Positions 4,053-50,820 of a stretch of DNA of 64,000 nt are shown here, piece after piece (within the stretch, counting starts at the first letter, position 1; each line of letters starts with the position of its first letter). Origin of the DNA: Candidatus Colwellbacteria bacterium (GTDB taxonomy: Bacteria > Patescibacteriota > Minisyncoccia > UBA6257 > Colwellbacteraceae); contig JACOWZ010000003.1 of the NCBI GenBank assembly GCA_016176525.1, positions 385,000 through 448,999 of the forward strand, given 5' to 3'. The notes beneath the pieces are model-generated. The model was not told where the DNA came from and searched no databases. It was given only the letters and a program-made list of their open reading frames with translations. The translations under genes were made by a program, and so were the position numbers.

Positions 4053-4054
4053 AG

Positions 4055-8749: not shown

Positions 8750-8809
8750 CAAAATAAAATCCCTTCGGTTTAGCGAAGGGTGGGTAGAGATGATCGGTTT
8801 CTTGTTCGG

Positions 8810-8872: not shown

Positions 8873-8944
8873 TTGTTCACCTCCTTATGGTTCTGCCGAG
8901 AAGATATCATATTCAGAATATGGTGTCAAAGATAGATCTGAAAA

Positions 8945-9628: not shown

Positions 9629-10761
9629 AAAGGATAGTTATAGTAGCAATTATTTTAGTGGTGGCTTTCGGCATATATAAATTTTATTCTGGAAGAGATT
9701 TAGGTGATGATGGGAGGCTTACACGAGCGATAGGCGAATATAATTGCCCAACGGTTTCCAATCTGCCCGATTTCGGCAAACTTTATGATGGTCCGCTTAT
9801 AGATACTCATATGCATATACCGCATCCGCCCGAAGGGCCGGAGTTTCTTGATTCGTTGCCATATTCCAGCCCGCACCCGCAACTAGGGCGGAGTATCACT
9901 GTGTCTGATTACATATGTAATTTCAAAACCACAGGAATTACCAAAGCTTTTATATTTTTCCCAGTTTTCCGTGGACTTGAAGATCTGCATCTTGCGGTAG
10001 CGGATGCGAGTGTTAAGAGATATCCAGAGTTTTTAGTGCCGTTTATTATGCCTCCAGAGAATGACAATGATCCGAGTGGATTTCCGACTGTAAGTGTTGA
10101 TGTTCTTGGAGAGATGCTCCAAGTGTATTCGGGGCTTTTTAGAGGCTATGGTGAAATAGGGCTCTATGCTCGCGGAGACAATAGAGGACCGACCGGAGCT
10201 CCCGAACTTCCGCCTGATTCAGAGAGGCTTCGCGAAATATACCCCATGATCCGAGAAAATAATCTTCTAGTTTACTTCCACTTAGGTCGCGGTCAGCAAG
10301 AATCTTATGAGCGTGTTTTGTCGGCAAACCCAGACATTAATTTTATATTTCATGGTGATCAGTTGATTCCATATGATCGCGGCGTGCAGAACCTTAATAT
10401 CATTGATGGAATACTTAGCCGTCATAAGAATGTCTATTACGGGATTGATGAGTTATATGGAGATGTTTGGCTTCTACATCCAGATAAAAGCAAAGATCAA
10501 TTCTTCAAACATTTTGAGAACTACGAAGAACTCTTGGAATATGATATCGCAACATGGAAAGGGTTTATAGAACGGCATCCCGACCAAGTGCTTTGGGGGA
10601 CCGACCGCGGGGTTGGCAATATCTGGAGCATGGATCGCGATGTAGGATTAACGCTTACACGTTATGCACGGGCATTTATTGCATTACTCGAACCATCTGT
10701 ACAAGATAGATTTGCTCATTTGAATGCCGAGGCGCTGTTGCTTAAATCATCGAATAAGTGA
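9625..10761 (+). CDS. Metal-dependent amidohydrolase-family (TIM-barrel) protein
   Basis: N-terminal TM; DTHMHIPHP metal-binding His motif. Confidence 0.55.
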   Translation: MKRIVIVAIILVVAFGIYKFYSGRDLGDDGRLTRAIGEYNCPTVSNLPDFGKLYDGPLIDTHMHIPHPPEGPEFLDSLPYSSPHPQLGRSITVSDYICNFKTTGITKAFIFFPVFRGLEDLHLAVADASVKRYPEFLVPFIMPPENDNDPSGFPTVSVDVLGEMLQVYSGLFRGYGEIGLYARGDNRGPTGAPELPPDSERLREIYPMIRENNLLVYFHLGRGQQESYERVLSANPDINFIFHGDQLIPYDRGVQNLNIIDGILSRHKNVYYGIDELYGDVWLLHPDKSKDQFFKHFENYEELLEYDIATWKGFIERHPDQVLWGTDRGVGNIWSMDRDVGLTLTRYARAFIALLEPSVQDRFAHLNAEALLLKSSNK

Positions 10762-21080: not shown

Positions 21081-21599
21081 TCACTCTTGTTCTTCTTGCT
21101 CTTCCTTACAGAGAGTGTGAACGCATTTACCGAGGTAGTCGTTTATTCTGTCTATCGCTTCTATTGCAAGTCGCCTGCGTTCTTGCAGAGTTATGCCTCC
21201 ATTGCGGAGTAATCCAAGAATCTTGTTGTATTGATTCAGATCTGTGATAACTGCACAGCGTTCGTAATTTCTCGCCCCCCAAGCGAGTAGAAAAACCCTA
21301 ACTGGTTCTACCTGCTCCATGCTTTGTACTTCTGTTTTTTCCGGAATTGGGCAGACTACAACATTAAATGGAATGTTAAAGTCGCCAATGCGCCCCTTAA
21401 GAAGGTCTTTTACTAAGTTGGCTTCTTCGATTTTCAGTTCCCGCTTGTTTAGGGGTAGGCTTTGGATTGTTAGTGGGCCGGCAGTTATTTGGAACCCGAC
21501 TTTAGCAAGCTCTACTACAAATTCAGCAGTGCTTTTTAACGGGTCCATGTTGTGGTCGGCGTGCGAGACACTAACAAACGCGCGTTTTTGCTCTTGCAT
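21081..21599 (-). CDS. Hypothetical protein
   Basis: 172 aa, acidic C-terminus; no family recognised. Confidence 0.4.
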   Translation of the reverse strand: MQEQKRAFVSVSHADHNMDPLKSTAEFVVELAKVGFQITAGPLTIQSLPLNKRELKIEEANLVKDLLKGRIGDFNIPFNVVVCPIPEKTEVQSMEQVEPVRVFLLAWGARNYERCAVITDLNQYNKILGLLRNGGITLQERRRLAIEAIDRINDYLGKCVHTLCKEEQEEQE

Positions 21600-35449: not shown

Positions 35450-35533
35450 GGGCAGATGGCGGAGTGGTCAATCGCACGACGCTGTAAACGTCGCGGCTTT
35501 ATGCCTACGCAGGTTCGAATCCTGCTCTGCCCA
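35450..35533 (+). tRNA. tRNA-Tyr (GTA), long variable arm, no encoded CCA
   Basis: Acceptor GGGCAGA/TCTGCCC, anticodon loop CTGTAAA, variable arm ~14 nt, T-arm GCAGGTTCGAATCCTGC. Confidence 0.8.
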
Positions 35534-35684
35534 CAAATCAAAAATGGATTGTCTTGCGCAATCCTATTTTTGATTTATGATGGTTAGATTAAGACAGGAT
35601 TCGAAGACCGCAGCGAAATCCGCCAGCTGGCGGATGAGCGAGGGGCGGCCTGCGAGCGCGACGAGCGACGGCGAGGAGCGACTT

Positions 35685-35709
35685 GTAGGAGAATCCTGCT
35701 CTGCCCACA
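35685..35709 (+). repeat. Direct duplicate of the tRNA-Tyr 3' end (GTAGGAGAATCCTGCTCTGCCCACA)
   Basis: 19 of 19 nt identical to tRNA-Tyr positions ~35515-35533 plus flanking similarity. Confidence 0.8.
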
Positions 35710-35740
35710 GTTCGACTCTATGGAACCGTAATATAACTCT

Positions 35741-36331
35741 ATGACCAAACGTACTAAAAAGATTATTGATTTTTTGTACGAGATCGAGAAATTCAAACTC
35801 GTTGAAAGGCGGACATATTTGTCGAATCAAAAGAGGCATGAATCTGATGCCGAGCATGAGTGGCATATGGCGATGATGATTTGGCTTTTCTCAACTGTTA
35901 TAAAGAAAAAGTTTGATGTGTTTCATGCGATGAAACTCGCACTTGTGCATGACTTGCCGGAGATTTATGCAGGGGATACGTATAGGTTCGATCCTAAAGG
36001 CAATAATACAAAGAGAGCGCGTGAGGTGAAGGCGGCTCGCAAACTCTTTGCTCAACTACCTAAAGATTTAGATAAAGAATTCTGGGCGCTCTGGGATGAG
36101 TACGAAGAAAATAAAACTTATGAGGCTAGAATTGTGCATTTCGTTGATGGAACAAATCCAGGTATTCAGAATATGGTTTCAAAAGCCAAAGCATGGAAAG
36201 AGAATAAATTAGATAGGAAAAGCGTATTCAAGAGGAGAGATGAATTGCTTCAATATATCGACAGCAAAGAACTTAAGGATTGGCTCAATTCGTTAGTTGA
36301 TGAAGCTGTAAAAAAGAAGTATCTTATTTAA
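35741..36331 (+). CDS. HD-domain phosphohydrolase (YfbR-like 5'-deoxynucleotidase)
   Basis: ESDAEHEWHMAMM...LALVHDLPEIYAGD HD motifs. Confidence 0.8.
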   Translation: MTKRTKKIIDFLYEIEKFKLVERRTYLSNQKRHESDAEHEWHMAMMIWLFSTVIKKKFDVFHAMKLALVHDLPEIYAGDTYRFDPKGNNTKRAREVKAARKLFAQLPKDLDKEFWALWDEYEENKTYEARIVHFVDGTNPGIQNMVSKAKAWKENKLDRKSVFKRRDELLQYIDSKELKDWLNSLVDEAVKKKYLI

Positions 36332-36339
36332 GTAATTTT

Positions 36340-36411
36340 GCCGCCCTAGCTCAACGGCAGAGCAACTCTTTTGTAAAGAGTAGGTTGGGGGTTCGATTCC
36401 TCTGGGCGGCT
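36340..36411 (+). tRNA. tRNA-Thr (TGT)
   Basis: Acceptor GCCGCCC/GGGCGGC, anticodon loop TTTGTAA, T-loop TTCGATT; the T-stem has two G-U pairs. Confidence 0.7.
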
Positions 36412-36415
36412 CAAA

Positions 36416-36754
36416 ATGCCAAAGCAGGAGTTAATAAATTTAGAGCCAGAGAAACCATCTATAACAAAACTTAAAGAGGCTATATTTTCTTCTCCTGAAA
36501 AAATAGAGAGCGAGCTTGCTAAGGGCGGCAATGATTGGCTTGCTTGTTTTACAACAAGAGTGCAGGTTATAGAGGCGCTTTTTGGAAGCGCAATTAATGA
36601 TTTAGACGAGAGCGAAGACACGCGTTATAAAGAAAATATAGATTCGCTCAAAAAACATTTAGAAGAAGTTAGAGGGCGCTATCCTGTAGATGAAGAAGAT
36701 CCGCCGAAATATATAAAGAGCGAGCTTTTAGGTATGCTGGATATTTTGCACTGA
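36416..36754 (+). CDS. Hypothetical protein
   Basis: 112 aa acidic ORF between two tRNA-Thr genes. Confidence 0.4.
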   Translation: MPKQELINLEPEKPSITKLKEAIFSSPEKIESELAKGGNDWLACFTTRVQVIEALFGSAINDLDESEDTRYKENIDSLKKHLEEVRGRYPVDEEDPPKYIKSELLGMLDILH

Positions 36755-36779
36755 AGCATTTAGAATGTATTTACGCTTC

Positions 36780-36852
36780 GCCAATGTAGCTCAGTCGGTA
36801 GAGCAACTCCATGGTAAGGAGTAGGTCGCCGGTTCAATTCCGGCCATTGGCT
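36780..36852 (+). tRNA. tRNA-Thr (GGT)
   Basis: Acceptor GCCAATG/CATTGGC, anticodon loop ATGGTAA, T-arm GCCGGTTCAATTCCGGC. Confidence 0.8.
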
Positions 36853-36993
36853 CAAAATACAAAAGCATATCTTTATATTGATGGCCGAATTGAACCGTGG
36901 AAAGGGGTCGGGAAAACTAGTTTTCCCGTTGCGGAAATATTAAAACCGCAGGGTTTTAAAGAGCGAGTTGCTGTATAGCGACTCGCGACGTGA

Positions 36994-37980: not shown

Positions 37981-38298
37981 ATGACTATAAATATAACTGC
38001 TAACGATTTGGATTTAACTCCTGCGTTTAAAGAATTTATTGAATCTAAAGTAGGCGCGCTAAACAAATTCGTAGAAAGATTTGATGGGGATAGCCTAATC
38101 ACAAATGTTGTGGTTTCTCGCACTACAGCGCACCACAGGCACGGCGAAGTGTTTGATGCCAAAATTGATATTGGCTTGCCTGGCTCGATTATAAGAGCTG
38201 CTGCAATAGCACCTGATGCGAGAACCGCTGTTTTAGATGCTTGTAAAAAACTTGAACGCGAGATTGAGAAGTATAAGACTAAGATTGGCTCGCGATGA
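37981..38298 (+). CDS. hpf: Ribosome hibernation promoting factor / RaiA (short form)
   Basis: S30EA-family pattern; immediately upstream of secA with 4-nt overlap. Confidence 0.8.
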
Positions 38299-40832
38299 TT
38301 AAAAAACTAAAAAGCCTTTTTTTATTTAGAGGAGACGATTATAAGAAGCGCGTCCAAGAAATAAATTCTCTTGAGAGTGAAATTAAGGCACTCTCCGATG
38401 AGGAGCTTAAAAAAGAAAGCCAAAAGTTAAGAGAGCACGCAAAGGCGGGCGAAGATTTAAACGGGCTTTTGCCGCGCGCATTTGCTCTTGTGCGCGAAGC
38501 GGCTCGCCGCACTTTAGAGCAAAGGCATTTTGATGTCCAACTTGTAGGCGGAATTGTTTTGCATAAGGGCGCGGTTGCCGAGATGCTGACTGGTGAGGGT
38601 AAAACACTTACTGCCACATTGCCGGTTTATTTAAATGCGTTAGACGGCAAAGGGGCGCATGTTATAACAGTAAATGATTATTTAACAAAGAGGGACGTTG
38701 TATGGATGGGGCAAATTTACCACTTTTTAGGGCTTAAAGTTGCCTGCATTGCACACGAATCTTCTTTTATATATGACCCAGAACATACGGGGGAAAAATT
38801 ACAAACAGAGGATAAAGAAAGAGACGCTTTAGGCAGCTTTAAGGTTGTAGAAGAGTTCTTGCGGCCGGTTAACCGCAAAGAGGCATACGAAGCAGACATT
38901 ATTTATGGCACAAACCATGAGTTTGGGTTTGATTATTTGCGCGACAATTTAACACCAAGTTTAGCTGCGCGCGTGCAGAGAGAGCATAATTTCGCCGTTA
39001 TAGACGAGGTAGACTCAATCTTAATTGATGAGGCAAGAACTCCGCTTATAATATCGGCTCCCGACAGGGCATCTTCGGACCATTACAAAGTTTTTGCCCG
39101 CGCAGTTAGAAACCTGAATACGGAAGAAGATTATACGGTGGATGAAAAGCTCAAATCGGTTGCAATAACTGAATCCGGCATAAACAAGATTGAAAGAATG
39201 TTAGGGGTAAAAGATTTATACGCACTGGAGAATTTGCGCCTTGTGCACTATTTGGAAGCAAGCCTAAAAGCCAAAGCGCTCTTTGAGCGTGACAAAGACT
39301 ATGTTGTGCGGAACGGTGAAGTAATTATAGTTGACCAATTTACAGGTAGACTGATGTTGGGGCGCAGATATTCTAGCGGTTTGCACCAGGCGATTGAGGC
39401 AAAAGAAGGGGTGTATGTTAAAGAAGAATCTAAAACCTATGCGCAGATTACAATACAAAACTATTTTAGGCTTTACAAAAAAATATCCGGTATGACGGGA
39501 ACTGCGCAAACATCTGCCGAAGAATTCCATAAAGTTTATAACTTGGAGGTTGAAAGTATTCCGCCAAATAAGCCGATGGTAAGAGACGACAGGCCGGACA
39601 GAATATTTAGAACTACAGAGGCAAAATACTCTGCGATTGTGCGAGAAGTTAAAGAGAGGCATGAGAACGGCCAGCCGGTTTTGGTTGGCACAGTCTCCAT
39701 TGAGAAAAACGAGTTTTTGGGCCAGCTTTTGCGCAAAGAGGGCTTGCCGGCTGAGATTTTAAACGCGAAGAACCACGAGCGTGAAGGTGCAATTATTGCA
39801 CAGGCTGGCAAACCCGGGGTGATTACTATCGCCACCAACATGGCAGGCCGCGGTGTAGACATTGTATTGGGGGGCAACCCAGGGACCCCGGAAGAGGCGG
39901 AAAAAGTGCGTAAAGCAGGCGGCCTGCATGTTATAGGCACAGAGAGGCACGAGGCGAGGCGCATTGACAACCAGCTTCGCGGGCGCGCAGGCAGGCAGGG
40001 TGACCCGGGCAGCAGCCAGTTTTTTGTATCCACTGAGGACGACCTTATGCGCATTTTCGGCGGCGAGCGAATCAAAGGAATTATGGATAGGTTTAAGCTA
40101 GAAGACGAGCTGCCGCCGAATAAGTTTATTGGTGGCGCATTGGAGCAAGCACAGAGCAAGATTGAAGGGTTCCACTTTGATGCCCGTAAACACTTGCTTG
40201 AGTATGACGACATTTTAAACAAACAGAGGACAAACTTTTATGGCAAGCGCCTAAAAGTTTTACAGGCGTTAGATAGCGGAAACCCCAAACAAGTATTTAA
40301 AGAGCTTTTAGAGAGTTATATTGGGCGCTTGCGCGAAACAAATATTGATATAGAAGAGCTAATTAAGCTTTTTACAGAAAGCTATGTTTTATCTAAAGAA
40401 GAAGCTGAAAAAATTAAAGAGAATGATGAAGTTTTCAATTTAGGGCTATCTAACATAGATAAAAAACTAGGCGGTCTGGAAAACTCTAAAGCGATAGGCA
40501 CTAGGTTTTTGGGTGTAATGGACTTTTTATGGATGAACCACTTAGAAGACGTGGAGGCGCTTACCGAATCTGTACGTATTCGCGCATATGGGCAAAAAGA
40601 CCCGCTTGTTGAATATCGTAAAGAAGGATACCAATTATTCCAGATGTTGCAGGCGAATATTGAGGCGTGGCTTTTTAACAACATCTTTAAGTTTAAGGAT
40701 TTACCTAAGGATGGTGAAACACAACAGATAAAAGTTGCGCTAAAAGATACTAAGTCTAGTGGCAAGATTGGCAGAAACGACCCCTGCCCATGCGGCAGCG
40801 GCAAAAAATACAAAAAGTGCCATGGCGCGTAG
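38295..40832 (+). CDS. secA: Preprotein translocase ATPase SecA
   Basis: DEAD-like motor motifs ([32 protein letters not shown]), C-terminal Zn finger [14 protein letters not shown]. Confidence 0.95.
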
Positions 40833-40870
40833 CGCAATATTTCAATATTTAAACATTTAAATATTTAAAA

Positions 40871-41191
40871 ATGAGCAAATTTTATAAAATAGTTGTTTTT
40901 GTTCCAGTGGATGCTGCAGATAAAGTGCGGGGTGCTATTACGCGAGCTGGTGGGGGTAGAATAGGTAATTATTCCGGTTGTAGTTTCTCCTCTAAGGGAA
41001 TTGGTCGTTTTAAGCCAGAGATAGGCGCAGATCCTGTTATTGGTAAAGTTGGTCAATCAGAGAAGGTGGAAGAAGAGAGAATTGAGGTTAGATGCGAGGA
41101 GGCAGTAGTTAAAGATATAATCACTGCGATTAAAAAATCTCATCCATATAATGAAGTTGCTTTAGATGTTTATGAATTAGTAGATTTTTAA
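40871..41191 (+). CDS. Small conserved protein, NIF3-insert/PII-like fold candidate (hypothetical)
   Basis: 106 aa; C-terminal HPYNEVALDVYEL motif resembling NIF3/CutA-type domains; weak. Confidence 0.4.
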   Translation: MSKFYKIVVFVPVDAADKVRGAITRAGGGRIGNYSGCSFSSKGIGRFKPEIGADPVIGKVGQSEKVEEERIEVRCEEAVVKDIITAIKKSHPYNEVALDVYELVDF

Positions 41192-41231
41192 TCTTCGATA
41201 TTGAAATATATAAATATTTAAAAATCTAAAC

Positions 41232-41684
41232 ATGGAGTTTAAAGATTTCTTAGTTAGGGCAAAGATTAATACCTATGCGACAGCTGGCGAAGGAGGCGAG
41301 AAAAGACTAAATGATGGCTCAAAAGAACTAATTTATAAAGAAGGTGATTTTATATATCGTGATAGATATTTCGGCGCACTGAGTTTTGTTGGTGAAGAAA
41401 TTGTATTTAAAAATAAGATACCGATTTGGGGTATGAATTACTGTGGCGCAACTATGGATCCGAGTATGACCAATGAAAAAGTTGCCGACTTTCTTAAAAG
41501 GGCCTTGAGAGCAGTTACAAGCGATATGCCATTTCGCGGTCCTTCAGAATTTAAAGAAGGAGATTGGTTCTACATAAATCAAGTTTCAGGCGATGTGAAT
41601 AGTTTCTCTGGTCACGAAGAGATTAAATATAAAGACCATGCTGTTTATAAGCTAGATTATCACGGTGGTATTATTAAAAAATAA
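41232..41684 (+). CDS. Hypothetical protein (DUF5680-like)
   Basis: YATAGEGGEKRLNDGSKELIY.EGDFIYRDRYFG pattern; no confident family. Confidence 0.4.
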   Translation: MEFKDFLVRAKINTYATAGEGGEKRLNDGSKELIYKEGDFIYRDRYFGALSFVGEEIVFKNKIPIWGMNYCGATMDPSMTNEKVADFLKRALRAVTSDMPFRGPSEFKEGDWFYINQVSGDVNSFSGHEEIKYKDHAVYKLDYHGGIIKK

Positions 41685-41701
41685 TATTTAAAGATTTAAA
41701 T

Positions 41702-42151
41702 ATGACAGCAGATGTTAGGCAATTAATTAAAGAAGTATTGAAGAAAGGTTATCTTATGAGTCTAGCTACGCTTGATGAGGGTGGTGTGTGGGTTGCTGAT
41801 GTAATTTATATTCATGACAATGATTTTAATATTTATTGGATGTCTGACCCCAGTGTACGGCACTCACAGGCAATAATAAAGAATAATCGAGTGGCTGGGA
41901 CTATAACGGTAAGCGGCGTAAAAGAGGACAATATGGGAATTCAGTTTGAAGGTATAGGCGAAAAGATAGATGGAGACAGATATGATTTGGCTCTAAAACA
42001 TTATAAAAAGAGAAAAAAACCAGCACCTAAAGAAAACGAGGATGTGCTCCAGGGAGATTCTTGGTATGTGTTGAAACCAAAGAAGATCCAATTAATTTAT
42101 GAGAAATTATTTGGTTTTGAAAAGCAGGATTTGGACATGAAATATATATGA
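41702..42151 (+). CDS. Pyridoxamine 5'-phosphate oxidase-like FMN-binding split-barrel protein
   Basis: YLMSLATLDEGGVWVADVIYIHD...IYWMSDPSVRH pattern typical of PNPOx-like/general stress protein 26. Confidence 0.6.
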   Translation: MTADVRQLIKEVLKKGYLMSLATLDEGGVWVADVIYIHDNDFNIYWMSDPSVRHSQAIIKNNRVAGTITVSGVKEDNMGIQFEGIGEKIDGDRYDLALKHYKKRKKPAPKENEDVLQGDSWYVLKPKKIQLIYEKLFGFEKQDLDMKYI

Positions 42152-42591
42152 TAAATAACGATAAAAAATTTCTAAGATCAGCGATTAAACAATCAAAATT
42201 ATCTGTTGAACAAGGCAGGTTCCCGGCCGGGGCAATATTAGTCTTGAATGGAGAAGTTATTGCATCGGAGATGAGCGATACGGATTCTGGATATGAGCAT
42301 GCAGAATGTAGAGCTGTTGATACCGCGTTCCAAAAAGTAGGAAAGCTTACAAATACTACACTGTATGCCTCGATGGAACCTTGTCTGATGTGTCTTGGGC
42401 GAGCCTACTGGGCTGGAATTCGTAAGATAGTATTTGCTATTTCTAGAAACAGTGTGCCTAAGGAGTATTATGAAGGATTACACGATAATAATGAGTTGAT
42501 GGATAGTTTTAATGAAAAAATTGAGCTAATACATCTTAGTGAGCTTGAAGAAGAAGCTATAAAAGTCGTGCGTATGTGGAATCAAGTATAG
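42148..42591 (+). CDS. CMP/dCMP-type zinc-dependent nucleoside/nucleotide deaminase
   Basis: HAECRAV and EPCLMC zinc-ligand motifs. Confidence 0.75.
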   Translation: MINNDKKFLRSAIKQSKLSVEQGRFPAGAILVLNGEVIASEMSDTDSGYEHAECRAVDTAFQKVGKLTNTTLYASMEPCLMCLGRAYWAGIRKIVFAISRNSVPKEYYEGLHDNNELMDSFNEKIELIHLSELEEEAIKVVRMWNQV

Positions 42592-42598
42592 AAGTATT

Positions 42599-43012
42599 AT
42601 GCTAAATAAAGCAGGCGGGGTTGTGTTGAATAAAGATGGCAAGATTGCTATTGTGAAAAATAGTGGCAGGTTCGGCGAATATTGGTCTTTACCTATGGGG
42701 AGAGTAGATGAAAACGAAGATGTTTTTGACTGCGCTCTACGCGAAATTCGTGAAGAAACTGGGTTAGTTAATCTGGAGCTGGTAAAGAAACTCGGCAGTT
42801 ATAACAGAAAGGGTATGGATTATGATAATGGCGAGCCGAAGGAAGTCCCCAAGAAAATAACTTTGTTTTTGTTTAATACAAACGAGATGGAGCTGAAGCC
42901 TGTCGACCCCGACAACCCAGAAGCAAAATGGGTTACAATAGATGAAGCGATAAATTTAATGAGGCACGAGGGAGACAAAGAATTTTTAAGAAGCGTTAAG
43001 GACAAAATATAA
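42599..43012 (+). CDS. NUDIX hydrolase
   Basis: Nudix box GRVDENEDVFDCALREIREETGL. Confidence 0.8.
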   Translation: MLNKAGGVVLNKDGKIAIVKNSGRFGEYWSLPMGRVDENEDVFDCALREIREETGLVNLELVKKLGSYNRKGMDYDNGEPKEVPKKITLFLFNTNEMELKPVDPDNPEAKWVTIDEAINLMRHEGDKEFLRSVKDKI

Positions 43013-43015
43013 AAA

Positions 43016-43435
43016 ATGGAGGATAAAATAGTGTTGCAAGTTGGAGTTAAAGTTTTGCTTAAAAATAAAGACGGCCGATATCTGTTATTGCGCAGATCTC
43101 TAGAAAAATATCCTGAAGTTCCAAATAGGTGGGATATAGCTGGCGGCAGAATTGATCCTGGCACAACTCTGCTTGAGAATCTGAAGCGAGAAGTTATAGA
43201 GGAAACCAGTTTGGAATTAAAAGGAGCGCCGAGATTGGTGGCTGCCCAGGATATTTTGAGGATAAAAGGGCGCCACGTTGTTCGGCTTACATACATAGGC
43301 GAGGCCGAGGGAGAGCCGCGCCTTGATGGAGAGGAGCATGATATGTATAAATGGGTGACTATTCCGGAAATTGGCGAATTGACCGGCGTTGATATTTATT
43401 TTAAAGAATTATTAGATAATAAAGTTATACAATAA
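43016..43435 (+). CDS. NUDIX hydrolase
   Basis: Nudix box GGRIDPGTTLLENLKREVIEETSL. Confidence 0.8.
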   Translation: MEDKIVLQVGVKVLLKNKDGRYLLLRRSLEKYPEVPNRWDIAGGRIDPGTTLLENLKREVIEETSLELKGAPRLVAAQDILRIKGRHVVRLTYIGEAEGEPRLDGEEHDMYKWVTIPEIGELTGVDIYFKELLDNKVIQ

Positions 43436-43450
43436 ATTTTGTAACTGATT

Positions 43451-43966
43451 ATGCCGGCTAAAAAAATAAGCATAGACGAGGCGAAGAAAGACAAACTGTT
43501 TTATTTTGTCACCAATGTTTTAGTGTACAAAGATGGAAAGTGTTTAATATTAAAACGGCACGAACGCGAGAAAGTGCACCCGGGCAAATGGGGCACGCCT
43601 GGCGGCAAGCTTGAGTGGGATGATTTTCCACTAAAGCCGGATGGCGAAGTTTATAACGATGTCTGGCAGTTCCATAAAGCGGTTGAGGATTTATGCAGGC
43701 GCGAGGTACGCGAGGAAGCTGGTTTGGAGATTGGAGATGAGTTTGCATATATTGATTCTACAGTTTTTGTGCGGCCCGATGGCATTCCGGTGGTGCTAAT
43801 AAAACTAGGTTGTAAGTACAAGGGTGGGGAGGTGAAACTTGAAGAAGACGCCTTTACAGACTACGCGTGGGTGGACGCGGAGGAGATTAAGAAGTATGAT
43901 TGCGTGATTAACGTACCGGAAGAAATTGCAAAAACCATAAAACTTTTTGGTAAATATCATGGCTAA
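43451..43966 (+). CDS. NUDIX hydrolase (divergent)
   Basis: GGKLEWDDF...REVREEAGL Nudix-box-like motif. Confidence 0.7.
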   Translation: MPAKKISIDEAKKDKLFYFVTNVLVYKDGKCLILKRHEREKVHPGKWGTPGGKLEWDDFPLKPDGEVYNDVWQFHKAVEDLCRREVREEAGLEIGDEFAYIDSTVFVRPDGIPVVLIKLGCKYKGGEVKLEEDAFTDYAWVDAEEIKKYDCVINVPEEIAKTIKLFGKYHG

Positions 43967-44213
43967 AAATAAACCACTCCCACCGCTTTCGGGAAAAGCA
44001 AAGCAGATAAAAGTAGGAGGCGTATATGAGCATTTTAAAGGTGATAATTATCGCGTAATCGGCGTGGGCCGCGATAGCGAGGATTTACATGAAGTTGTTA
44101 TCTATCAAGGGGAATATGAAGGTAAGCCTATTTTTGTACGTGCAGTCGAGATGTTTTTAGACAACGTTCAAAAACCTGATTACCAAGGCCCAAGGTTTCA
44201 GCTTATAGAATAA
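43947..44213 (+). CDS. DUF1653-family small protein
   Basis: YEHFKGDNYRVIGV...HEVVIYQ pattern typical of DUF1653. Confidence 0.55.
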   Translation: MVNIMAKNKPLPPLSGKAKQIKVGGVYEHFKGDNYRVIGVGRDSEDLHEVVIYQGEYEGKPIFVRAVEMFLDNVQKPDYQGPRFQLIE

Positions 44214-44234
44214 AAACCCTCTAATCGTAGAGGG

Positions 44235-44696
44235 TTAGTAGGGCGTGAATTCTATTTTTTGGAATCCAGAAGCGCTTTCTTTGTAGTGTACTGTAGCGCG
44301 GAATCTCTCGCCGCGGATTGCTTTTGGAAACCATTTGCGGTCTGATTCGAGCATTTGATCCAGAGGCAGTGTGCTTACGCTTACCCATTGCGGGATCATT
44401 TCGCTTGTCTCTTTTGGGCGTCCGCGGAACTTATCGGTCCAAAAAATATGAACCTTGAAATCTGGCTCGCCGCTTGCGAAAAACGTTATCACCGCGATTT
44501 CGTTTAAGGTGCTCGGTATAAGATGAATGCCTAGTTCTTCTCTTGCTTCTCTTACAACACAGTGTAGAAGAGTTTCACCGGGTTCAACCTTGCCTCCCGG
44601 ACCGTTTAGTGTTTTTGCGCCAATTTCGCCCTTTTTCTTGTAACCGAGCAGCACCTTGCCGTCTCTTACTATTATTGCGAGTGTTGCGATTTTCAT
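44235..44696 (-). CDS. NUDIX hydrolase (MutT-like)
   Basis: Nudix box GGKVEPGETLLHCVVREAREELGI. Confidence 0.8.
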   Translation of the reverse strand: MKIATLAIIVRDGKVLLGYKKKGEIGAKTLNGPGGKVEPGETLLHCVVREAREELGIHLIPSTLNEIAVITFFASGEPDFKVHIFWTDKFRGRPKETSEMIPQWVSVSTLPLDQMLESDRKWFPKAIRGERFRATVHYKESASGFQKIEFTPY

Positions 44697-44744
44697 ACAT
44701 CACCTTTAGCGCAGTTGTACTGTTCTATAGTATAGTTATCAGTA

Positions 44745-45230
44745 ATGGATAATCAATACTTGCACGAAGTTGTTATAACTGCGATTGTGGTTAAGGATAA
44801 CAAATATCTTATTACGCGCAGAGCGGCGACGAAAAAGCGTTTCCCTGGAATGTGGACTGTACCTGGAGGCAAACTTGAAACGGATGACTATATAAATTTG
44901 CCGAAAGACACAGAGCACTATTGGTATAACGTTTTGGAGAAGACTTTAAAGCGCGAAGTAAAAGAAGAGGTTGGTGTTGATATTAAAAACATTGAGTATG
45001 TAACAAGTTTAGCCCGCGTGCATGAAGATGGTGCGCCGTCGTTGGTTATTTCTTGCATGGCAGACTATGCAGGAGGCGAAATAACACTACAAGAGGGTGA
45101 AACCGATAAATACGAGTGGGTGAGTTTAGAAGAAGCTAAAAACTACGAGCTTATTGATGGAATTTATGACGAGCTTGCTATGGCAGATGCTAAACTGCGT
45201 GGAGTGAAGAGCGAGTGGAAAAGGAGTTAG
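44745..45230 (+). CDS. NUDIX hydrolase
   Basis: Nudix box GGKLETDDY...LKREVKEEVGV. Confidence 0.8.
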   Translation: MDNQYLHEVVITAIVVKDNKYLITRRAATKKRFPGMWTVPGGKLETDDYINLPKDTEHYWYNVLEKTLKREVKEEVGVDIKNIEYVTSLARVHEDGAPSLVISCMADYAGGEITLQEGETDKYEWVSLEEAKNYELIDGIYDELAMADAKLRGVKSEWKRS

Positions 45231-46329
45231 CATGGTTTAGTAAAATATTTATCTTTTTTTGGAAGTTTTCTTTGGAGAATTTCTTTGCGGTTTTTGAAAC
45301 GGTTCGGCGGTTAAATTTAAACCTAGTAAAAGCCTCAATCGCGGCTATTAGGGCCTCTGGGGACTGCTCATCAAAAAGTACTCCGTTTGTGCCGTCTTCA
45401 ATAATTTCTGTCTGGCCACCTTTGTTGTAGGCAATTACCGGCGTGCCGCAGGCAATAGACTCTGCCGCTGTTAGCCCAAAATCTTCCACTTGCGGAAAAA
45501 TTGTCGCGCGAGCGCCGCTTATAATTTTGCGCATTTCGTCATCGTGTTTCCCATTGCCGATCAACTTTATATTTGGCGATGTAATAATCTGTTCAACTTT
45601 TTCTCTATGCGGGCCGTCGCCCAAGATTATAAGCGGAGTATTAAGTTTGTTGAACGCTTTAACTATTAAGTCAAATTTCTTGTAGTGGAGTATGCGCCCG
45701 AAGGCAAGGAAGTATTCGTGTTTGGAAAACGGCAGCTTTTGTACAGGTTCCTCTTTGTCATAATAGAAAGTATTAGTGTCAACCGGCGGGTGAACAACAA
45801 AGACATCTCTGCCATAGAATTTGCGCACTTTATCTGCTGTAAATTCAGAGTTTGCCAGTAGCATATTAGGCTTTAACCCCATGCGCTCATCCCAGTTTTT
45901 AAGGTAAGAAATTATAGGGTGGGCGGCCTTGATAAGCGATTCATCAAAAAGAGTACCAAGATATTCTTGAGGTTCCCATGCGTAGCGAAGAGGCGAGTGG
46001 GTATAGCTTATATGGAACCCACGGCTGTATCTTATGCCTTTTGCCCAGCCTGCAGTGGCAGAAATTATAATATCGTATTTGTCGCCTAAATTTATGCTAT
46101 TTGCCGCTCCAGGCATTAGCGGTACAAAAAAACGGTGGTTTTTGTGCACCAGAGAGTTGTTTAAAAAGCTGGTTTTTATTGTTTTGCCGGCAAAGTGGCC
46201 GTTTTGGGAGCCTGGCTGGTGGAAGAGGGTATAGATTGGCGCTTCAGGGAACATCTCGGAGAGTGCTACAAGCACACGCTCCGCTCCGCCGAATTGATTT
46301 AGATAGTCGTGGACTAATGCTACACGCAT
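45190..46329 (-). CDS. Glycosyltransferase family 4 (GT-B fold)
   Basis: MRVALVHDYLNQFGGAERV N-terminus; EDFGLTAAESIACGTPVIA C-terminal sugar-donor motif. Confidence 0.85.
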   Translation of the reverse strand: MRVALVHDYLNQFGGAERVLVALSEMFPEAPIYTLFHQPGSQNGHFAGKTIKTSFLNNSLVHKNHRFFVPLMPGAANSINLGDKYDIIISATAGWAKGIRYSRGFHISYTHSPLRYAWEPQEYLGTLFDESLIKAAHPIISYLKNWDERMGLKPNMLLANSEFTADKVRKFYGRDVFVVHPPVDTNTFYYDKEEPVQKLPFSKHEYFLAFGRILHYKKFDLIVKAFNKLNTPLIILGDGPHREKVEQIITSPNIKLIGNGKHDDEMRKIISGARATIFPQVEDFGLTAAESIACGTPVIAYNKGGQTEIIEDGTNGVLFDEQSPEALIAAIEAFTRFKFNRRTVSKTAKKFSKENFQKKINILLNHANSFSTRSSLHAV

Positions 46330-46341
46330 AGTTATAATTCT

Positions 46342-46950
46342 ATGGTGAAGTACCCTTTTTGGAAACGTGTGGAGGACATTTTGGGCTCTACCTTTGGGAT
46401 TTTGCTTATTTCGCCCATTTTGCCTTTTATAGTTCTAGCAATAAAACTTGAGTACCCGCGTGAAAAGACACTTGTAAAACTAAAAAGAGTAAGCGAAGGC
46501 AAGATAATAGAAGTATATAAATTTAGAAATATGATACCGAATGCGGATAAAATAAAAAAAGATCTATTACATTTAAACGAACGCACAGACGGCCCGTTTT
46601 TTAAGATTTCTAGAGATCCACGCGTGACGCGGGTTGGGCGAGTGTTGCGCAAATTTCGCTTAGATGAATTTCCGCAGCTTATAAATGTTTTGCGGGGCGA
46701 GCTTGCGCTTGTGGGTCCACGGCCGCATGAGCGCGAGGAGGTTGATGCCTACCCCGCGGAGTATAAAGATATAGCTGAATATAGAGCCGGAGTAACCGGT
46801 CTTTCACAAGTTAGCGGCGCATCAAGCCTCGCTTTTATGCGCGAGCTTGAACTGGACAAATTTTATATACAAAACCGTTCTTTATGGATGGATGTTAAAA
46901 TACTTTTTAGAACCGCCGCGATTTTATTTTTTGACCCAACAGCAGTATGA
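46342..46950 (+). CDS. Bacterial sugar transferase (polyprenyl-phosphate hexose-1-phosphate transferase, WbaP C-terminal-type)
   Basis: N-terminal TM; DEFPQLINVLRGELALVGPRP and AGVTGLSQV motifs. Confidence 0.85.
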   Translation: MVKYPFWKRVEDILGSTFGILLISPILPFIVLAIKLEYPREKTLVKLKRVSEGKIIEVYKFRNMIPNADKIKKDLLHLNERTDGPFFKISRDPRVTRVGRVLRKFRLDEFPQLINVLRGELALVGPRPHEREEVDAYPAEYKDIAEYRAGVTGLSQVSGASSLAFMRELELDKFYIQNRSLWMDVKILFRTAAILFFDPTAV

Positions 46951-48998
46951 AAAAACAACCGATAAATAACGTAAGGTATGTAGTAAAAGATGTTTATCAT
47001 CCGCGGGAGCGCGGGCGTAAATTGCGCAAATCCACAAAAAGCTCCGGATATTTTTCGCGCGCCGGTTGGGTGCCTAATAAATTTAATATAAAACCGCGGC
47101 GCCTGCCATTTGGAGTGAGGAGAGTTGCAGCCTTTGGGGCACTCGCCATATTTTTGGCTGTGTTTGCTTATGGAGGTTATCTCTGGAGCTATAAAGACGA
47201 TGGGATGCGTTCTATTTCTAATATCTATGAGAACTTTAAGTCGGCTGCAGAAAATATGGTGCTCTTGAACACTGATGCAGCGCGGGAATTTTTAGAAAAC
47301 ATAGAAATTGAAGTTAAAGGCATTGATGGCAGAACAAAACTCTTGAACGCGGCGCCTGTTTTAAGCGAAGTTCCACGCGCAGTCGGCAATATTGCGGAGC
47401 TCACTACTCTTATGAATTTACTGAATTCCGATGTTGAAAGTTTAAAGACCAATGGCTTCAATATGCTTTTTAGCGAAACCGGCCAAGGAATAACGAGTAT
47501 TTTAAAGAATACTCAAGCAAATATTGTTAAAATAGAAAATCTCGTAAGAGAGCTTAAAAACGCTGCCTCGAAGTTTGGGCTTGCCTCTACAACCATAGCC
47601 GGCGATTATTTAGCGCTTGATGTTAGCCTTACTAGGGGCTCTGATTTCATTAACGGCATCTTAAATCTTTTGGATTCTGGCGAGGATAAGAGATTGATTG
47701 TATTTTTTGAAAACCCTTCGGAGATTAGGCCCGGTGGCGGGTTTTTAGGCAGTTATGCAGAATTAGTGCTCGGTGGCGGCAGAGTAAAGCAGATAAATGT
47801 AAACGATGTTTATTATCCTGTGCGGTTTTCCGATTTTAAAATTGTGCCGCCTAAGCAGTTGCAAGCTATAGTGGGCAGTTGGAACACACAGGATGCGAAT
47901 TGGTTTTTTGATTTTGCAATGTCTGCCGAAAAAACCCTTGATTTTTTGGAAGCCTCGGATATTTACGAGGGTAAACATATGGCAGGCGCAGTCGCAATAA
48001 ATGTAAAAGTCATAGAAGATATATTGCCGCTTATCGGGGAAATAGAGGTGCCAGAATATGGGCTTACACTAACTTCTAAAAACTTTTTGCGCGAGGTACA
48101 AGAAGAGGTTGAGGTAGGTAGAGATAAGAAGCCCGGCCAGAACCCCAAAAAGATTTTAAATATTATAACGCCAATTTTAATGGAGCGGCTCTCAAACTTA
48201 GATGATAACGACAAATTACAGCTTGCCCAAATTTTTGCAAAGCGCGCTATAAACAAAGATATAAAGTTTTATTTCCGCGACAAAACCCTACAAGATTTCG
48301 CAGAAGAATATCTTGTTGCCGGCAGGGTGTTTAAAATACCCACAGGGTTTAGTGGAGATTACTTAGCTGTAGTTAATGCCAACGTTGCGGGAGGGAAAAC
48401 CGATGTTTTTGTGCGCCAGAGTATTGATTTAACTTCACATATAGATAGTGCTGGTGCAGTTGTAAACAAGCTCTCTATTGAACGTGCACATGAGGGCTAT
48501 GGTGAGAGAGAATGGTGGTATAGGGCGACCAACCAGAATTACATAAAAGTATTCGCGCCCACCGGCGCCAAGCTAGAGAGTTTGAGCGGCAACACTTCTA
48601 AAAATGTAACTCCCTTGGTAGACTATAGCATCGCGGATTATAAGGTTGATGAGGATTTGTCTTATGTGGAAGATACTAGAAGGTTCTTAACAGAGTTTGA
48701 AACATCTGAGTTTAAGGAGCTTGGAAAAACTTCTTGGGGAACATGGTTTAGCGTACAGGCAGGGGCAGAGCGCACACTTGAATTGCAATATGTTAACCCT
48801 AAGCGCGTGCGCGCTTATGATGGGGCAAAATATATATTTGTGCTAGACAAGCAATCTGGAGTTGAGTCTGAATTTAAGTATTCAATTGCTACACCGGAGG
48901 GTTTTGTGTGGGCAGAGTCCGGCACAAGTATATTCGAATATTCTACAAGAGAGATCCCCGCGCGGCTTACAATAGAATTAACTCTAAGAGAAGAATAA
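46947..48998 (+). CDS. Large membrane-anchored extracytoplasmic protein, DUF4012-like
   Basis: N-terminal TM; conserved ENPSEIRPGGGFLGSYAEL motif; follows the sugar transferase with 4-nt overlap. Confidence 0.55.
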   Translation: MKKQPINNVRYVVKDVYHPRERGRKLRKSTKSSGYFSRAGWVPNKFNIKPRRLPFGVRRVAAFGALAIFLAVFAYGGYLWSYKDDGMRSISNIYENFKSAAENMVLLNTDAAREFLENIEIEVKGIDGRTKLLNAAPVLSEVPRAVGNIAELTTLMNLLNSDVESLKTNGFNMLFSETGQGITSILKNTQANIVKIENLVRELKNAASKFGLASTTIAGDYLALDVSLTRGSDFINGILNLLDSGEDKRLIVFFENPSEIRPGGGFLGSYAELVLGGGRVKQINVNDVYYPVRFSDFKIVPPKQLQAIVGSWNTQDANWFFDFAMSAEKTLDFLEASDIYEGKHMAGAVAINVKVIEDILPLIGEIEVPEYGLTLTSKNFLREVQEEVEVGRDKKPGQNPKKILNIITPILMERLSNLDDNDKLQLAQIFAKRAINKDIKFYFRDKTLQDFAEEYLVAGRVFKIPTGFSGDYLAVVNANVAGGKTDVFVRQSIDLTSHIDSAGAVVNKLSIERAHEGYGEREWWYRATNQNYIKVFAPTGAKLESLSGNTSKNVTPLVDYSIADYKVDEDLSYVEDTRRFLTEFETSEFKELGKTSWGTWFSVQAGAERTLELQYVNPKRVRAYDGAKYIFVLDKQSGVESEFKYSIATPEGFVWAESGTSIFEYSTREIPARLTIELTLREE

Positions 48999-49016
48999 GC
49001 TTTAATTCACATTGCA

Positions 49017-49040
49017 GGTGTTATGATCAATCATAACACC
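49017..49040. repeat. 24-bp palindrome copy D (GGTGTTATGATCAATCATAACACC), 28 bp upstream of lepA
   Basis: Read directly. Confidence 0.9.
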
Positions 49041-49068
49041 ACTGTATCAGCACATCATTTATGAATAT

Positions 49069-50820
49069 ATGGAGATAAGAAATTTTGTAATCATAGCCCA
49101 TGTTGACCATGGGAAGAGTACGCTTGCCGATAGGCTTTTGGAGGCGACCCACACCGTTTCAGCGCATAAGATGAAAGCGCAGTATTTAGATGCGCTGGAG
49201 CTTGAGCGCGAGCGTGGGATAACCATAAAAATGGCACCGGTAAGAATGAAATATGGCGAATATATTTTGAATTTAATTGATACTCCTGGGCACAGCGACT
49301 TTAGTTATGAAGTTTCGCGCTCTTTGGGTGCGGTTGAGGGTGCGGTGCTACTGGTCGATATTACACAAGGCGCGCAGGCTCAAACCCTTGCAAATTTAGA
49401 CTCTGCCCGGCGCGCAGGCTTAAAAATAATAGGCGCGATAAATAAAATTGATTTAAACCCGGCGGGTGCGGATACTGCTTCCGAGGAACTCGCCTCGCTT
49501 TTGGGCTGTAAAAAAGAAGAAATTCATCGTGTTTCAGGCAAAACCGGCGAGGGTGTGGAAGGCCTTTTACAAGATATTGCGCGTAGAGTTCCTGGGCCTA
49601 AAATCGGGGGTGAGGAAAAATCTGCGCTTATTTTTAGCTCTACTTATAATAACCATAAAGGTGTTATTGCGTATGTTCGGGTTTTCGGCGGCAAGTTTAA
49701 GGCGGGTGAAAATGTGAAGCTTTTGGGAGTTAACGAGTCTTTTAAGATAAAAGAAGTTGGCTACTTTACGCCAGAATTTAAACCAGCCGACGCATTAGAG
49801 AACGGTGAGATAGGGTATATTGCAACTGGAATAAAAGATCCCGATATTATCAAAATAGGTGACACTGTTGGTTCAGATGGCGGGACGCCTCTGTCTGGTT
49901 TTAAAATTCCCCAGCCGGTTGTCTTTGTATCTATCTATCCAGACGAGAGTGATGACTATGACGATTTGAAGTTTGCTTTTGGCAAGTTACGGCTTGGTGA
50001 TTCTTCTTTAAGTTTTGCGCCGGATTTTAACGAAGTATTGGGGCGAGGCTTTAAATGCGGCTTTTTGGGCAAACTGCATATGGAAATAACAATACAAAGA
50101 TTAGAACGTGAGTTTGGCTTAAAAACTGTAAACAGTTTTCCGTCGGTTGCATATTTGGTTAAAACAAAAGATAAGGGGGAGTTTATTGCCGAGACTCCGC
50201 AAGATTTTCCTGCAGACTATTTAGAGGCTAAAGAGCCGATGGCGAATTTAGAGGTTTTGATCCCTGGGGAATATCTAGGCGCGTTTCTGGGGCTCAAAAA
50301 TGAGTTTAAGTTGGAGAATATTACAACCGACAATTACTTGCATAAAATAAAAGTGCGCGCGGCTCTTCCGCTCTCCGAGCTTATTGCGGATTTTGACGAC
50401 AGGTTAAAATCTATATCTTCTGGGTTTGCATCTTTTAGCTACGAGATAACTGATTTTCGCAGTGCAGACTTAAGAAAGTTAGATGTGCTTGTCGCCGGTG
50501 AACCTTTGGCGGGGCTCTCCAGAATTGTGCACAAAGAAGATGTTGAATCGGTTGGCCGCAATCTTGTTGTAAGGCTAAAAGACCTTTTACCGAAGGTGCA
50601 GTTTACGCAGGCCTTGCAGGCAATTGTGGGTGGCAAAATTATAGCGCGCGAAACTATACCGGCTCTACAAAAACGGCTTGGTTATTTTGGCAAAACCGGA
50701 GGAGACAGAACCCGCAAAATGAAACTCTGGAAGAAACAAAAAGAGGGTAAGGCGCGGCTAAAGGAGAGGGGGAGGGTGAGTGTACCCGCCGAGGCATTTA
50801 AGGAGCTTTTGAAAAAGTAA
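49069..50820 (+). CDS. lepA: Elongation factor 4 (LepA)
   Basis: G1 AHVDHGKSTLADRLL, DTPGH, NKIDL motifs; LepA C-terminal domain. Confidence 0.9.
   Translation: MEIRNFVIIAHVDHGKSTLADRLLEATHTVSAHKMKAQYLDALELERERGITIKMAPVRMKYGEYILNLIDTPGHSDFSYEVSRSLGAVEGAVLLVDITQGAQAQTLANLDSARRAGLKIIGAINKIDLNPAGADTASEELASLLGCKKEEIHRVSGKTGEGVEGLLQDIARRVPGPKIGGEEKSALIFSSTYNNHKGVIAYVRVFGGKFKAGENVKLLGVNESFKIKEVGYFTPEFKPADALENGEIGYIATGIKDPDIIKIGDTVGSDGGTPLSGFKIPQPVVFVSIYPDESDDYDDLKFAFGKLRLGDSSLSFAPDFNEVLGRGFKCGFLGKLHMEITIQRLEREFGLKTVNSFPSVAYLVKTKDKGEFIAETPQDFPADYLEAKEPMANLEVLIPGEYLGAFLGLKNEFKLENITTDNYLHKIKVRAALPLSELIADFDDRLKSISSGFASFSYEITDFRSADLRKLDVLVAGEPLAGLSRIVHKEDVESVGRNLVVRLKDLLPKVQFTQALQAIVGGKIIARETIPALQKRLGYFGKTGGDRTRKMKLWKKQKEGKARLKERGRVSVPAEAFKELLKK

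Follow-up and report, generated by a model that had tools for sequence, protein, structure and literature searches.

The stretch of Candidatus Colwellbacteria DNA analysed here (64 kb, hereafter the window) carries ten small genes directly downstream of secA, at positions 40871-45230, and five of them encode NUDIX hydrolases. We label the ten genes, in order, g1-g4, N1-N3, g8, N4 and N5. The cluster looks like familiar kinds of gene, with ordinary housekeeping roles, packed together at unusual density, not a new system, and it appears to have arisen by the gathering of pre-existing genes and not by local or tandem duplication. Assembly from old, separate families is indicated because N1-N5 are highly diverged from one another, and because the families of N2, N3 and N5 are conserved across the candidate phyla radiation (CPR). 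On balance we think it probable that these are ordinary chromosomal housekeeping genes, with the cleaning of a scavenged nucleotide pool as their most likely function.

The five NUDIX proteins are diverged members of old families

All five proteins match the Pfam NUDIX profile (PF00293) at 45-76 bits (cut-off 21.1; E values 4e-21 to 1e-11), and they are the sole NUDIX open reading frames (ORFs) within the window. Their density is far above background. Five genes lie within 2.6 kb, as against a maximum of three per 5 kb across 173 comparison loci (1.89 Mb, already NUDIX-enriched), which bears out the unusual density remarked on in the initial annotation. Deinococcus and Bacillus also carry many diverged NUDIX paralogs, presumably acting on different substrates, but these are dispersed over multi-megabase chromosomes; the largest contig known for the present genome is 645 kb.

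Pairwise identity among N1-N5 is 23-38%, with N3 and N5 the closest pair at 38%, and these values point to anciently diverged paralogs, as first proposed, and not to near-identical recent duplicates. Recent tandem duplication was rejected on these identities and also because the orthologs of N2, N3 and N5 in other phyla-level CPR groups are closer to them than are their local paralogs. The initial annotation had credited each protein with a distinct Nudix box. That description calls for refinement. Only N1 and N4 match the consensus GX5EX7REUXEEXGU exactly; in N2 the first E is replaced by T and the G by S, and in N3 and N5 a conserved insertion divides the box into its GGKxE and REx2EExG parts, both of which are kept. 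All five proteins have the catalytic REx2EE core.

The insertion lies between GGKLE and the REx2EE helix, is approximately 23 residues long in N3 and approximately 17 in N5, and is conserved in both families. In an AlphaFold (AF2) model of N3 (predicted local distance difference test score, pLDDT, 86.6) it forms a beta hairpin. At residues 60-76 of N3 the window has PDGEVYNDVWQF where the family consensus is approximately 'PTRxNGDV.DF', so that several near-invariant positions of the insertion are changed; this deviation may reflect relaxed or shifted constraint beside the adjacent paralog N5.

By homology search, N2, N3 and N5 fall into three separate families, all of them conserved among CPR bacteria at 60-85% identity. 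For N2 we recovered 1,404 homologs, the best 120 of which are 62-71% identical. For N3 the count is 2,195 at E<=1e-5, with identities of 59-66% among the best 120 that are full-length. Every named organism among these best 120 N3 homologs is a CPR bacterium or a DPANN archaeon. In three loci (L084-L086; e.g. L084 8001-8516; comparison loci are numbered with the prefix L) N3 orthologs approximately 66% identical sit in archaeal contexts, with genes for an intein-containing RadA, ribosomal protein aS21, EF-1beta and an AEP-like primase. Such a distribution implies that the N3 family is common to CPR and DPANN, probably through cross-domain transfer or extreme conservation. Across 80 metagenome loci, N5 orthologs keep 73-85% identity. 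Within the same genomes (L005, L012, L072, L087) N5 is 74-76% identical compared with 54-60% for SecA, and N5 is accordingly more conserved than a core translocase.

N4 resembles MTH1, and the other NUDIX proteins fall below curated cut-offs

None of the five proteins reaches an NCBIfam equivalog cut-off. For the E. coli-type MutT models (TIGR00586 / NF008044; cut-off 97.9) N4 scores best, at 43.6 bits, and the others score <=35 bits. Signature motifs of the ADP-ribose, NADH and CoA subfamilies were found in none of the five, and the matching NCBIfam models score far below cut-off. The signatures in question are a proline 15-16 residues after the box, SQPWPFPxS, and an upstream LLTxR. The subfamily classification by profile and structure that the initial annotation had called for gave a specific assignment for N4 and left the others below cut-off, N3 having a generic fold.

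N4 is the only NUDIX protein of the cluster with a specific assignment, and on sequence comparison it is clearly MTH1/NUDT1-like. It aligns near full length (residues 2-135) with the zebrafish, dog and human MTH1 structures 5otn, 5hzx, 5mzf and 1iry at E values of 2.5e-26 to 7e-23, and shares with them the canonical box, the asparagine of NG(F/P)GGK and the C-terminal WFP motif. We take the base-recognition residues of human MTH1 to be Asn33, Trp117, Asp119 and Asp120; N4 has Leu for Trp117 and Ser for Asp119 ('MLESD' where MTH1 has 'MWADD'), and in the PDB alignment the equivalents of Asn33 and of the second Asp are kept. The specificity of N4 may differ from that of MTH1.

The match of N1 is to Ap4A (diadenosine tetraphosphate) hydrolases, the nearest being those of Aquifex, lupin and C. 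elegans; the best is the Aquifex enzyme (3i7u, E 1.7e-9), and RppH models and Dcp2 are also among its matches. N1 shares the canonical box with the Ap4A hydrolase/RppH (NudH) group, but its E values there are only 1e-9 to 1e-6, and against the RppH models (NF001938 and related, cut-offs >=116) it scores <=33.5 bits. The ApnA signature is presumably a tyrosine at +16 to +18 after the Nudix box; N1 has none there and has downstream tyrosines at +12 and +19. We regard N1 as weakly Ap4A-hydrolase/RppH-like.

N2, N3 and N5 appear to be MutT/NudG/NudI-like. The best PDB match of N2 is 3grn, an uncharacterised MutT-related protein of M. mazei (E 6e-13). For N3 and N5 the best matches are the pyrimidine (deoxy)nucleoside triphosphate ((d)NTP) pyrophosphohydrolases NudI (YfaO) and NudG (Orf135), whose FPG-W-x-PGGK(L)E entry into the box they also have. 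These matches are weak (E ~1e-7), at just 25-28% identity, and NudI and NudG lack the in-box insertion. The NudI model (NF012016) scores 33.4 bits with N3, 36.6 with N5 and 25.8 with N2 against a cut-off of 95. The AF2 model of N3 likewise gave generic Nudix-fold matches only, with NudI/YfaO first (template modelling score, TM, 0.55-0.68); BdRppH and NudC are also among its alignments, at E ~1e-10.

The secA-GT4 interval is a conserved frame with variable filling

The SecA protein of the window is 52-68% identical to those of Paceibacteria/Parcubacteria metagenome-assembled genomes, with Ca. Colwellbacteria proteins (64-65%, near full length) among the top entries; outside same-strain contigs the nearest secA is 65-68% identical. 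A 644,793-bp Ca. Colwellbacteria contig carries g2 unchanged. The hpf-secA pair is kept in relatives. Beyond it, the interval between secA and a family GT4 glycosyltransferase gene is a conserved frame, variably filled by subsets of the cluster families. In a Colwellbacteria locus (L174) hpf and secA (66%) are followed by an ortholog of N2 (65%), six small ORFs, GT4 on the opposite strand, Bac_transf, DUF4012 and LepA. The six small ORFs of this locus (6873-10054; 87-155 aa) run on the opposite strand and have neither a Pfam match nor likeness to genes of the window. In L087, secA is followed by a NUDIX gene, a Nuc_deoxyrib_tr-like gene and further genes, and then by orthologs of N3 and N5; this N3-N5 sub-block is also present in L099. 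The order is secA-g3-N5 in L124 and L127, and DUF1653, N5, GT4 on the opposite strand, Bac_transf and DUF4012 in L102; L177 combines N2 and N5 with a HAD hydrolase, and in L073 lepA directly follows secA. Orthologs of g3 (73%) lie directly after secA in L030, L049, L124 and L127, orthologs of g1 (62%) lie after secA in L014 and beside N5 in L162, and DUF1653 genes adjoin N5 orthologs in several genomes.

These associations are concentrated around two genes. In 80 related loci, 18 NUDIX ORFs lie in the 5 kb downstream of secA (267 kb in all) compared with one in the 5 kb upstream (319 kb). Around 80 N5 orthologs, 17 ORFs of the cluster families fall within 2 kb (204 kb, in 15 loci) and none beyond (285 kb). 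If such ORFs were evenly spread, the chance of finding all 17 near N5 would be approximately 3.5e-7, or approximately 3e-5 with some 12 independent events, both being hand calculations on loci that are phylogenetically non-independent. N5 is the hub of the gene-neighbourhood network. In one further locus (L143 915-3110) an N5 ortholog, an N1-like and an N4-like gene stand in a row, the only other NUDIX triple besides that of L087/L088.

The initial annotation had asked whether the gene set is scattered in close relatives. The answer is divided: the full set is found in no relative and N5 is mostly alone, yet subsets recur at the locus (secA-g3-N5, N3-N5, N2-N5, DUF1653-N5 and secA-N2) far above chance.

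The five non-NUDIX genes

No Pfam family, NIF3 included, matches g1. It does match residues 161-260, the insert domain, of the NIF3-related protein of B. cereus (2gx8, E 5.5e-27), in agreement with its first description as a NIF3-insert protein, and is predicted to be a stand-alone insert domain lacking the NIF3 core (the metal-site halves). The DUF5680 protein g2 has approximately 100 homologs, in CPR and DPANN, and no convincing PDB fold match was found for its AF2 model (pLDDT 91). In two other genomes its homologs have neighbours that bear no relation to NUDIX genes. For g3 the PNPOx_N profile gives 27.1 bits against a cut-off of 28.1 and the YhbP model 50.9 bits against 176, and its sequence matched no solved structure; a split-barrel fold is probable.

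For g8 (DUF1653) there is one PDB structure, the uncharacterised 3be3 (1.9e-5). DUF1653 has 1,955 representatives at E<=1e-3. Among twenty of the longer ones, one is fused to NUDIX (P0430), one to an ITPase/XTPase-family NTPase_I-T domain and one to a cytidylyltransferase. Other fusion partners are GNAT, GDPD, SnoaL, aminotransferase IV, MazE and UPF0158, tandem DUF1653 also occurs, and several of the twenty have no second domain. Since its fusion partners are so varied, DUF1653 appears to be a promiscuous accessory domain. In full-text literature searches no paper turned up on NUDIX genes of CPR/Patescibacteria, nor any functional account of DUF1653 or DUF5680.

The zinc deaminase g4 had been annotated as of CMP/dCMP type. 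Pfam supports the zinc deaminase family, and the structural matches place the protein in the TadA/guanine-deaminase/cytosine-deaminase clade, not with dCMP deaminases: TadA (7cph) is best at 7e-17 over residues 3-136, guanine/guanosine deaminases follow at ~4e-10, and dCMP deaminases reach only ~7e-3. A dCMP deaminase of the ComEB or T4 Cd type was rejected on this difference (~7e-3 compared with 1e-10 to 1e-17). The PHROG dCMP-deaminase match is limited to residues 44-104. The TadA equivalog model (NF008113) scores 48.9 bits against a cut-off of 150, and the Gly-rich segment that follows PCxxC in TadA ('DPKGGCSGT') aligns with 'VPKEYYEGL' and is not kept. The protein is probably a TadA that has diverged, or else a deaminase of bases or nucleosides.

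These matches bear on an alternative in which the locus is centred on RNA housekeeping and serves the maturation and decay of RNA, not the dNTP pool, with g4 as TadA, N1 as an RppH-type or decapping enzyme and the other NUDIX proteins removing caps (NAD, dephospho-CoA, Np4A). The TadA match of g4, the resemblance of N1 to Ap4A hydrolase, RppH and Dcp2, the alignment of the N3 model with BdRppH and NudC, and the gene for a ribosome hibernation factor (hpf) upstream all fit it. Nevertheless we consider it unlikely, given the low scores of g4 and N1 against the TadA and RppH models (48.9 and 33.5 bits against 150 and 116), the lost Gly-rich segment, the absence of the NudC motif SQPWPFPxS from all five NUDIX proteins, and an N4 that is clearly MTH1-like.

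Maintenance of cofactors (flavin, pterin, NAD) by g3, a RibD-like g4, NudB-like NUDIX proteins and a NIF3-related g1 is, in our estimate, very improbable. It would draw on the PNPOx_N/YhbP matches of g3, on the RibD model, which g4 matches at 2e-5, and on the dihydroneopterin-triphosphate diphosphatase model, which N1, N2 and N5 match at 5e-5 to 4e-3. All of these lie far below their cut-offs and are weaker than the TadA or MutT-type matches; moreover g1 is without the NIF3 catalytic core, and no riboflavin or folate genes were found nearby.

Nucleotide-pool sanitation and its alternatives

We favour a constitutive house-cleaning of the scavenged nucleotide pool. Through its REx2EE metal site, each NUDIX protein would hydrolyse its own class of nucleoside-diphosphate-X, yielding a nucleoside monophosphate (NMP) and pyrophosphate or phosphate. 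The proposed substrates are oxidised purine (d)NTPs for N4, dinucleoside polyphosphates or RNA 5' ends for N1, and compounds of (d)NTP type for N2, N3 and N5, while g4 would deaminate a free base or nucleoside, or A34 of tRNA. Beyond the NUDIX-fold hydrolases with predicted intact REx2EE sites, we infer every step of this scheme. The scheme fits the cluster because N4 is MTH1-like, because N2, N3 and N5 are MutT/NudG/NudI-like, and because secA-mutT provides a precedent. It also agrees with the presence in the window, by Pfam, of genes for DNA repair, for a ribonucleotide reductase and for an HD_3/YfbR-like 5'-deoxynucleotidase, and with the lifestyle of Patescibacteria. These are described as reliant on imported nucleotides and interconversion pathways (PMC11665869), and the scavenging host supposed in the initial annotation is indeed a CPR bacterium.

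The precedent is the E. coli secM-secA-mutT locus, in which, as in the window, a NUDIX house-cleaning gene directly follows secA (we verified the adjacency). The secA-NUDIX adjacency is therefore an old and known arrangement. E. coli has one mutT there, whereas the window has five NUDIX genes and five others, none of E. coli-type MutT by curated model, and the 8-oxo-dGTPase candidate of the window (N4) is of the eukaryote-like MTH1 type and lies on the opposite strand.

Several observations weigh against this reading. N1, N2, N3 and N5 score below every curated equivalog cut-off, and even in N4, where the 'QMWADD' of MTH1 aligns with 'QMLESD', two of the three WxDD base-recognition residues are lost. 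The best match of g4, TadA, is a tRNA deaminase and not a nucleotide-pool enzyme, and four genes (g1, g2, g3 and g8) are without a functional link to nucleotides. The complete cluster was found only in this strain, identical on same-strain Logan contigs; N5 is alone in approximately 80% of the loci examined; and DUF5680 homologs elsewhere do not lie beside NUDIX genes. On these three grounds a shared pathway is not required by the data. Finally, the G+C content of g1-g4 is 0.36-0.38, within the lowest 10% of the 58 genes of the window (mean 0.429, standard deviation 0.032), whereas that of the NUDIX genes is typical of the window; together with a private upstream element (see below), this hints at a later addition of part of the array. 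The sanitation island of the initial annotation is in this way backed by specific evidence for N4, with the other NUDIX proteins below cut-off and g4 possibly a tRNA deaminase.

The main rival to sanitation is an accretion of functionally unrelated genes in a permissive, well-expressed operon tail behind secA, the NUDIX genes sharing a locus and not a pathway, and the other five genes being unconnected with them. We judge it possible, though not the likelier account. The filling between secA and GT4 differs in every relative (L174, L073, L087), DUF5680 homologs elsewhere have unrelated neighbours, DUF1653 is fused to many unrelated domains, and the frequent solitude of N5 points the same way. 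Set against this, the same families are enriched near N5 (17 against 0) and near secA (18 against 1), the secA-NUDIX adjacency recurs in E. coli, and five side-by-side members of one superfamily are hard to explain neutrally.

A more specific version of the sanitation reading, which we put forward tentatively and think rather unlikely, is that N2, N3 and N5 form, with the DUF1653, PNPOx-like and NIF3-insert proteins, a loose module for an undescribed step of scavenged-nucleotide processing in ultra-small symbionts. Such a module might, for example, replace missing Dut, MazG or RdgB, or convert imported (d)NTPs or nucleoside-diphosphate-X compounds to usable NMPs, and the window would show it fully assembled. 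The three NUDIX families may be core to such symbionts: N5 is more conserved than SecA, N3 is approximately 65% identical between CPR bacteria and DPANN archaea, and the Nudix box is expanded and split in both N3 and N5.

The locus bears on how episymbiotic CPR bacteria acquire and keep up a nucleotide pool with no de novo synthesis of their own. On the sanitation reading, if true, it offers five NUDIX enzymes in one short, clonable stretch, and their substrates could be determined directly. Three of their families (N2, N3 and N5) are widely conserved but unstudied in CPR, N3 also in DPANN. In the interrupted Nudix box of N3 and N5, moreover, a classic catalytic motif takes an altered structural form that is open to testing. 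Should the genes be merely co-located, the locus still documents a variable hotspot of small genes behind secA in Paceibacteria and extends the secA-mutT adjacency known in E. coli.

The cluster lacks marks of a mobile or defence island

The initial annotation had raised the alternative that some members serve in anti-defence. As a conflict system, the cluster would turn its NUDIX proteins and its deaminase against phage, breaking down signalling or modified nucleotides or draining the nucleotide pool, or it would be a phage-derived anti-defence island. All five NUDIX proteins match the generic PADLOC candidate model PDC-S07 (E 1e-9 to 2e-17), the zinc motif of g4 matches a dCTP-deaminase defence model at 4.5e-6, and there are NUDIX matches in PHROGs. 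The PADLOC and PHROGs matches are generic to the superfamily, and that of the deaminase spans only 46 residues at the zinc site; PADLOC gave no specific defence-protein match in the cluster. IMG/VR holds no close relatives of N1 or N5 (the search being sensitive to close relatives only). No integrase, flanking direct repeats, phage genes or bordering tRNA were found at the cluster, and N2, N3 and N5 appear to be vertically conserved core families, N5 more conserved than SecA. The conflict reading is accordingly the least probable of those considered, and a phage or anti-defence origin was rejected.

A mobile or genomic island was also rejected, the integrase, border tRNA and flanking repeats being absent and the mild G+C dip of g1-g4 standing alone. 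Rfam found five tRNAs across the window, and no riboswitch or other non-coding RNA in the spacers.

Layout of the locus and an element upstream of g1-g3

The ORF listing, with Pfam and PDB matches, verified the gene content, the order and the place after secA given in the initial annotation for all ten genes (Table 1). The eight genes from g1 to g8 are co-directional and extend the hpf-secA string, with gaps from secA to g8 of 38, 40, 17, -4, 7, 3, 15 and -8 nt in order; the start of g4 thus overlaps the stop of g3 by 4 nt. The ATG at 43959 is the most likely start of g8, overlaps the stop of N3 by 8 nt and is also used in the independent gene call of the same-strain contig L081. In an independent gene call N2 starts at approximately 43031. 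Downstream of g8, a G+C-rich hairpin forms a terminator-like site that probably ends the co-directional string; N4 is convergent on this hairpin, N5 is divergent from N4, and the last 41 nt of N5, at its 3' end, are shared with the convergent GT4 gene.

Table 1. Features of the cluster and its flanks, with positions in the window, strand and basis of assignment.
Feature	Position	Strand	Basis or remark
hpf (Ribosomal_S30AE)	37981-38298	+	Pfam; conserved left anchor with secA
secA	38295-40832	+	Pfam; conserved left anchor with hpf
ATATTTAA-type element, copy 1	40833-40872	+	Pattern search; repeat family D1; ends at g1 start codon
g1, stand-alone NIF3-insert (PII-like), 106 aa (predicted)	40871-41191	+	PDB 2gx8 match
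ATATTTAA-type element, copy 2	41194-41233		Pattern search; repeat family D1
g2, DUF5680 protein, 150 aa	41232-41684	+	Pfam E 2.6e-35
ATATTTAA-type element, copy 3	41680-41703		Pattern search; repeat family D1
g3, PNPOx-like / YhbP-like split-barrel, 149 aa (probable)	41702-42151	+	PNPOx_N 27.1 bits
g4, zinc deaminase (HAE...PCLMC), 147 aa	42148-42591	+	dCMP_cyt_deam_1 E 8.6e-19
N1, NUDIX, canonical box (GRVDENEDVFDCALREIREETGL)	42599-43012	+	Pfam E 4.3e-21
N2, NUDIX, deviant box (GRIDPGT...REVIEETSL)	43016-43435	+	Pfam E 2.2e-17
N3, NUDIX, box split by insertion	43451-43966	+	Pfam E 1.1e-11
g8, DUF1653 protein, 84 aa	43959-44213	+	Pfam E 1.4e-18
G+C-rich hairpin AACCCTCTA-ATCG-TAGAGGGTT	44215-44236		Terminator scan; between convergent g8 and N4
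N4, MTH1/NUDT1-like NUDIX, canonical box, 153 aa	44235-44696	-	PDB MTH1 matches
N5, NUDIX with conserved insertion	44745-45230	+	Pfam E 1.2e-16
Right anchor: GT4 glycosyltransferase (-), Bac_transf, DUF4012, LepA	45190-50820		Pfam on same-strain contig L081

An AT-rich element, built from ATATTTAA-like units of 8 bp in tandem and containing the palindrome ATATTTAAATAT, directly precedes the start codon of each of the genes g1, g2 and g3. The ATATTTAA pattern has 10 matches in the 64 kb against 0.1 expected, all within the spacers before these three genes, and the g1 and g2 copies of the element are 88% identical over a 32-nt core (41194-41225 in the g2 copy). It may be a shared promoter, operator or leaderless-start signal. 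No such element was found upstream of orthologs in other genomes; the sole similar site is at L102 2337-2362 (ATATTTAAAGATTTAAACATTTAAAG), in a divergent GT4/Bac_transf spacer, where by manual count the motif lies approximately 15-20 nt upstream of a TATAAT box. The element was rejected as a cassette signature on these grounds, and the L102 motif suggests that it may instead be a lineage-specific regulatory or promoter-associated element and not a cassette scar.

Other genes of the window

The HD_3/YfbR-like 5'-deoxynucleotidase gene (35741-36331) and a Pfam-less ORF of 112 aa (36416-36754) are interleaved with tRNA genes at 35450-36853, namely tRNA-Tyr, tRNA-Thr(tgt) and tRNA-Thr(ggt). A 172-aa ORF on the reverse strand (21081-21599) matches, over residues 109-168, the start of the AICARFT/IMPCHase profile, and may be a fragment or stand-alone domain of this purine-biosynthesis enzyme. 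The start of the window (1-5664) is a group of DNA and nucleotide maintenance genes, comprising a ribonucleotide reductase that includes a TSCPD domain (1-1881), a glycosylase of the HhH-GPD type (2469-3158), an 88-aa protein with the MGMT DNA-binding domain only (3155-3421), which is possibly alkyltransferase-like, and a family-4-type uracil-DNA glycosylase (5038-5664).

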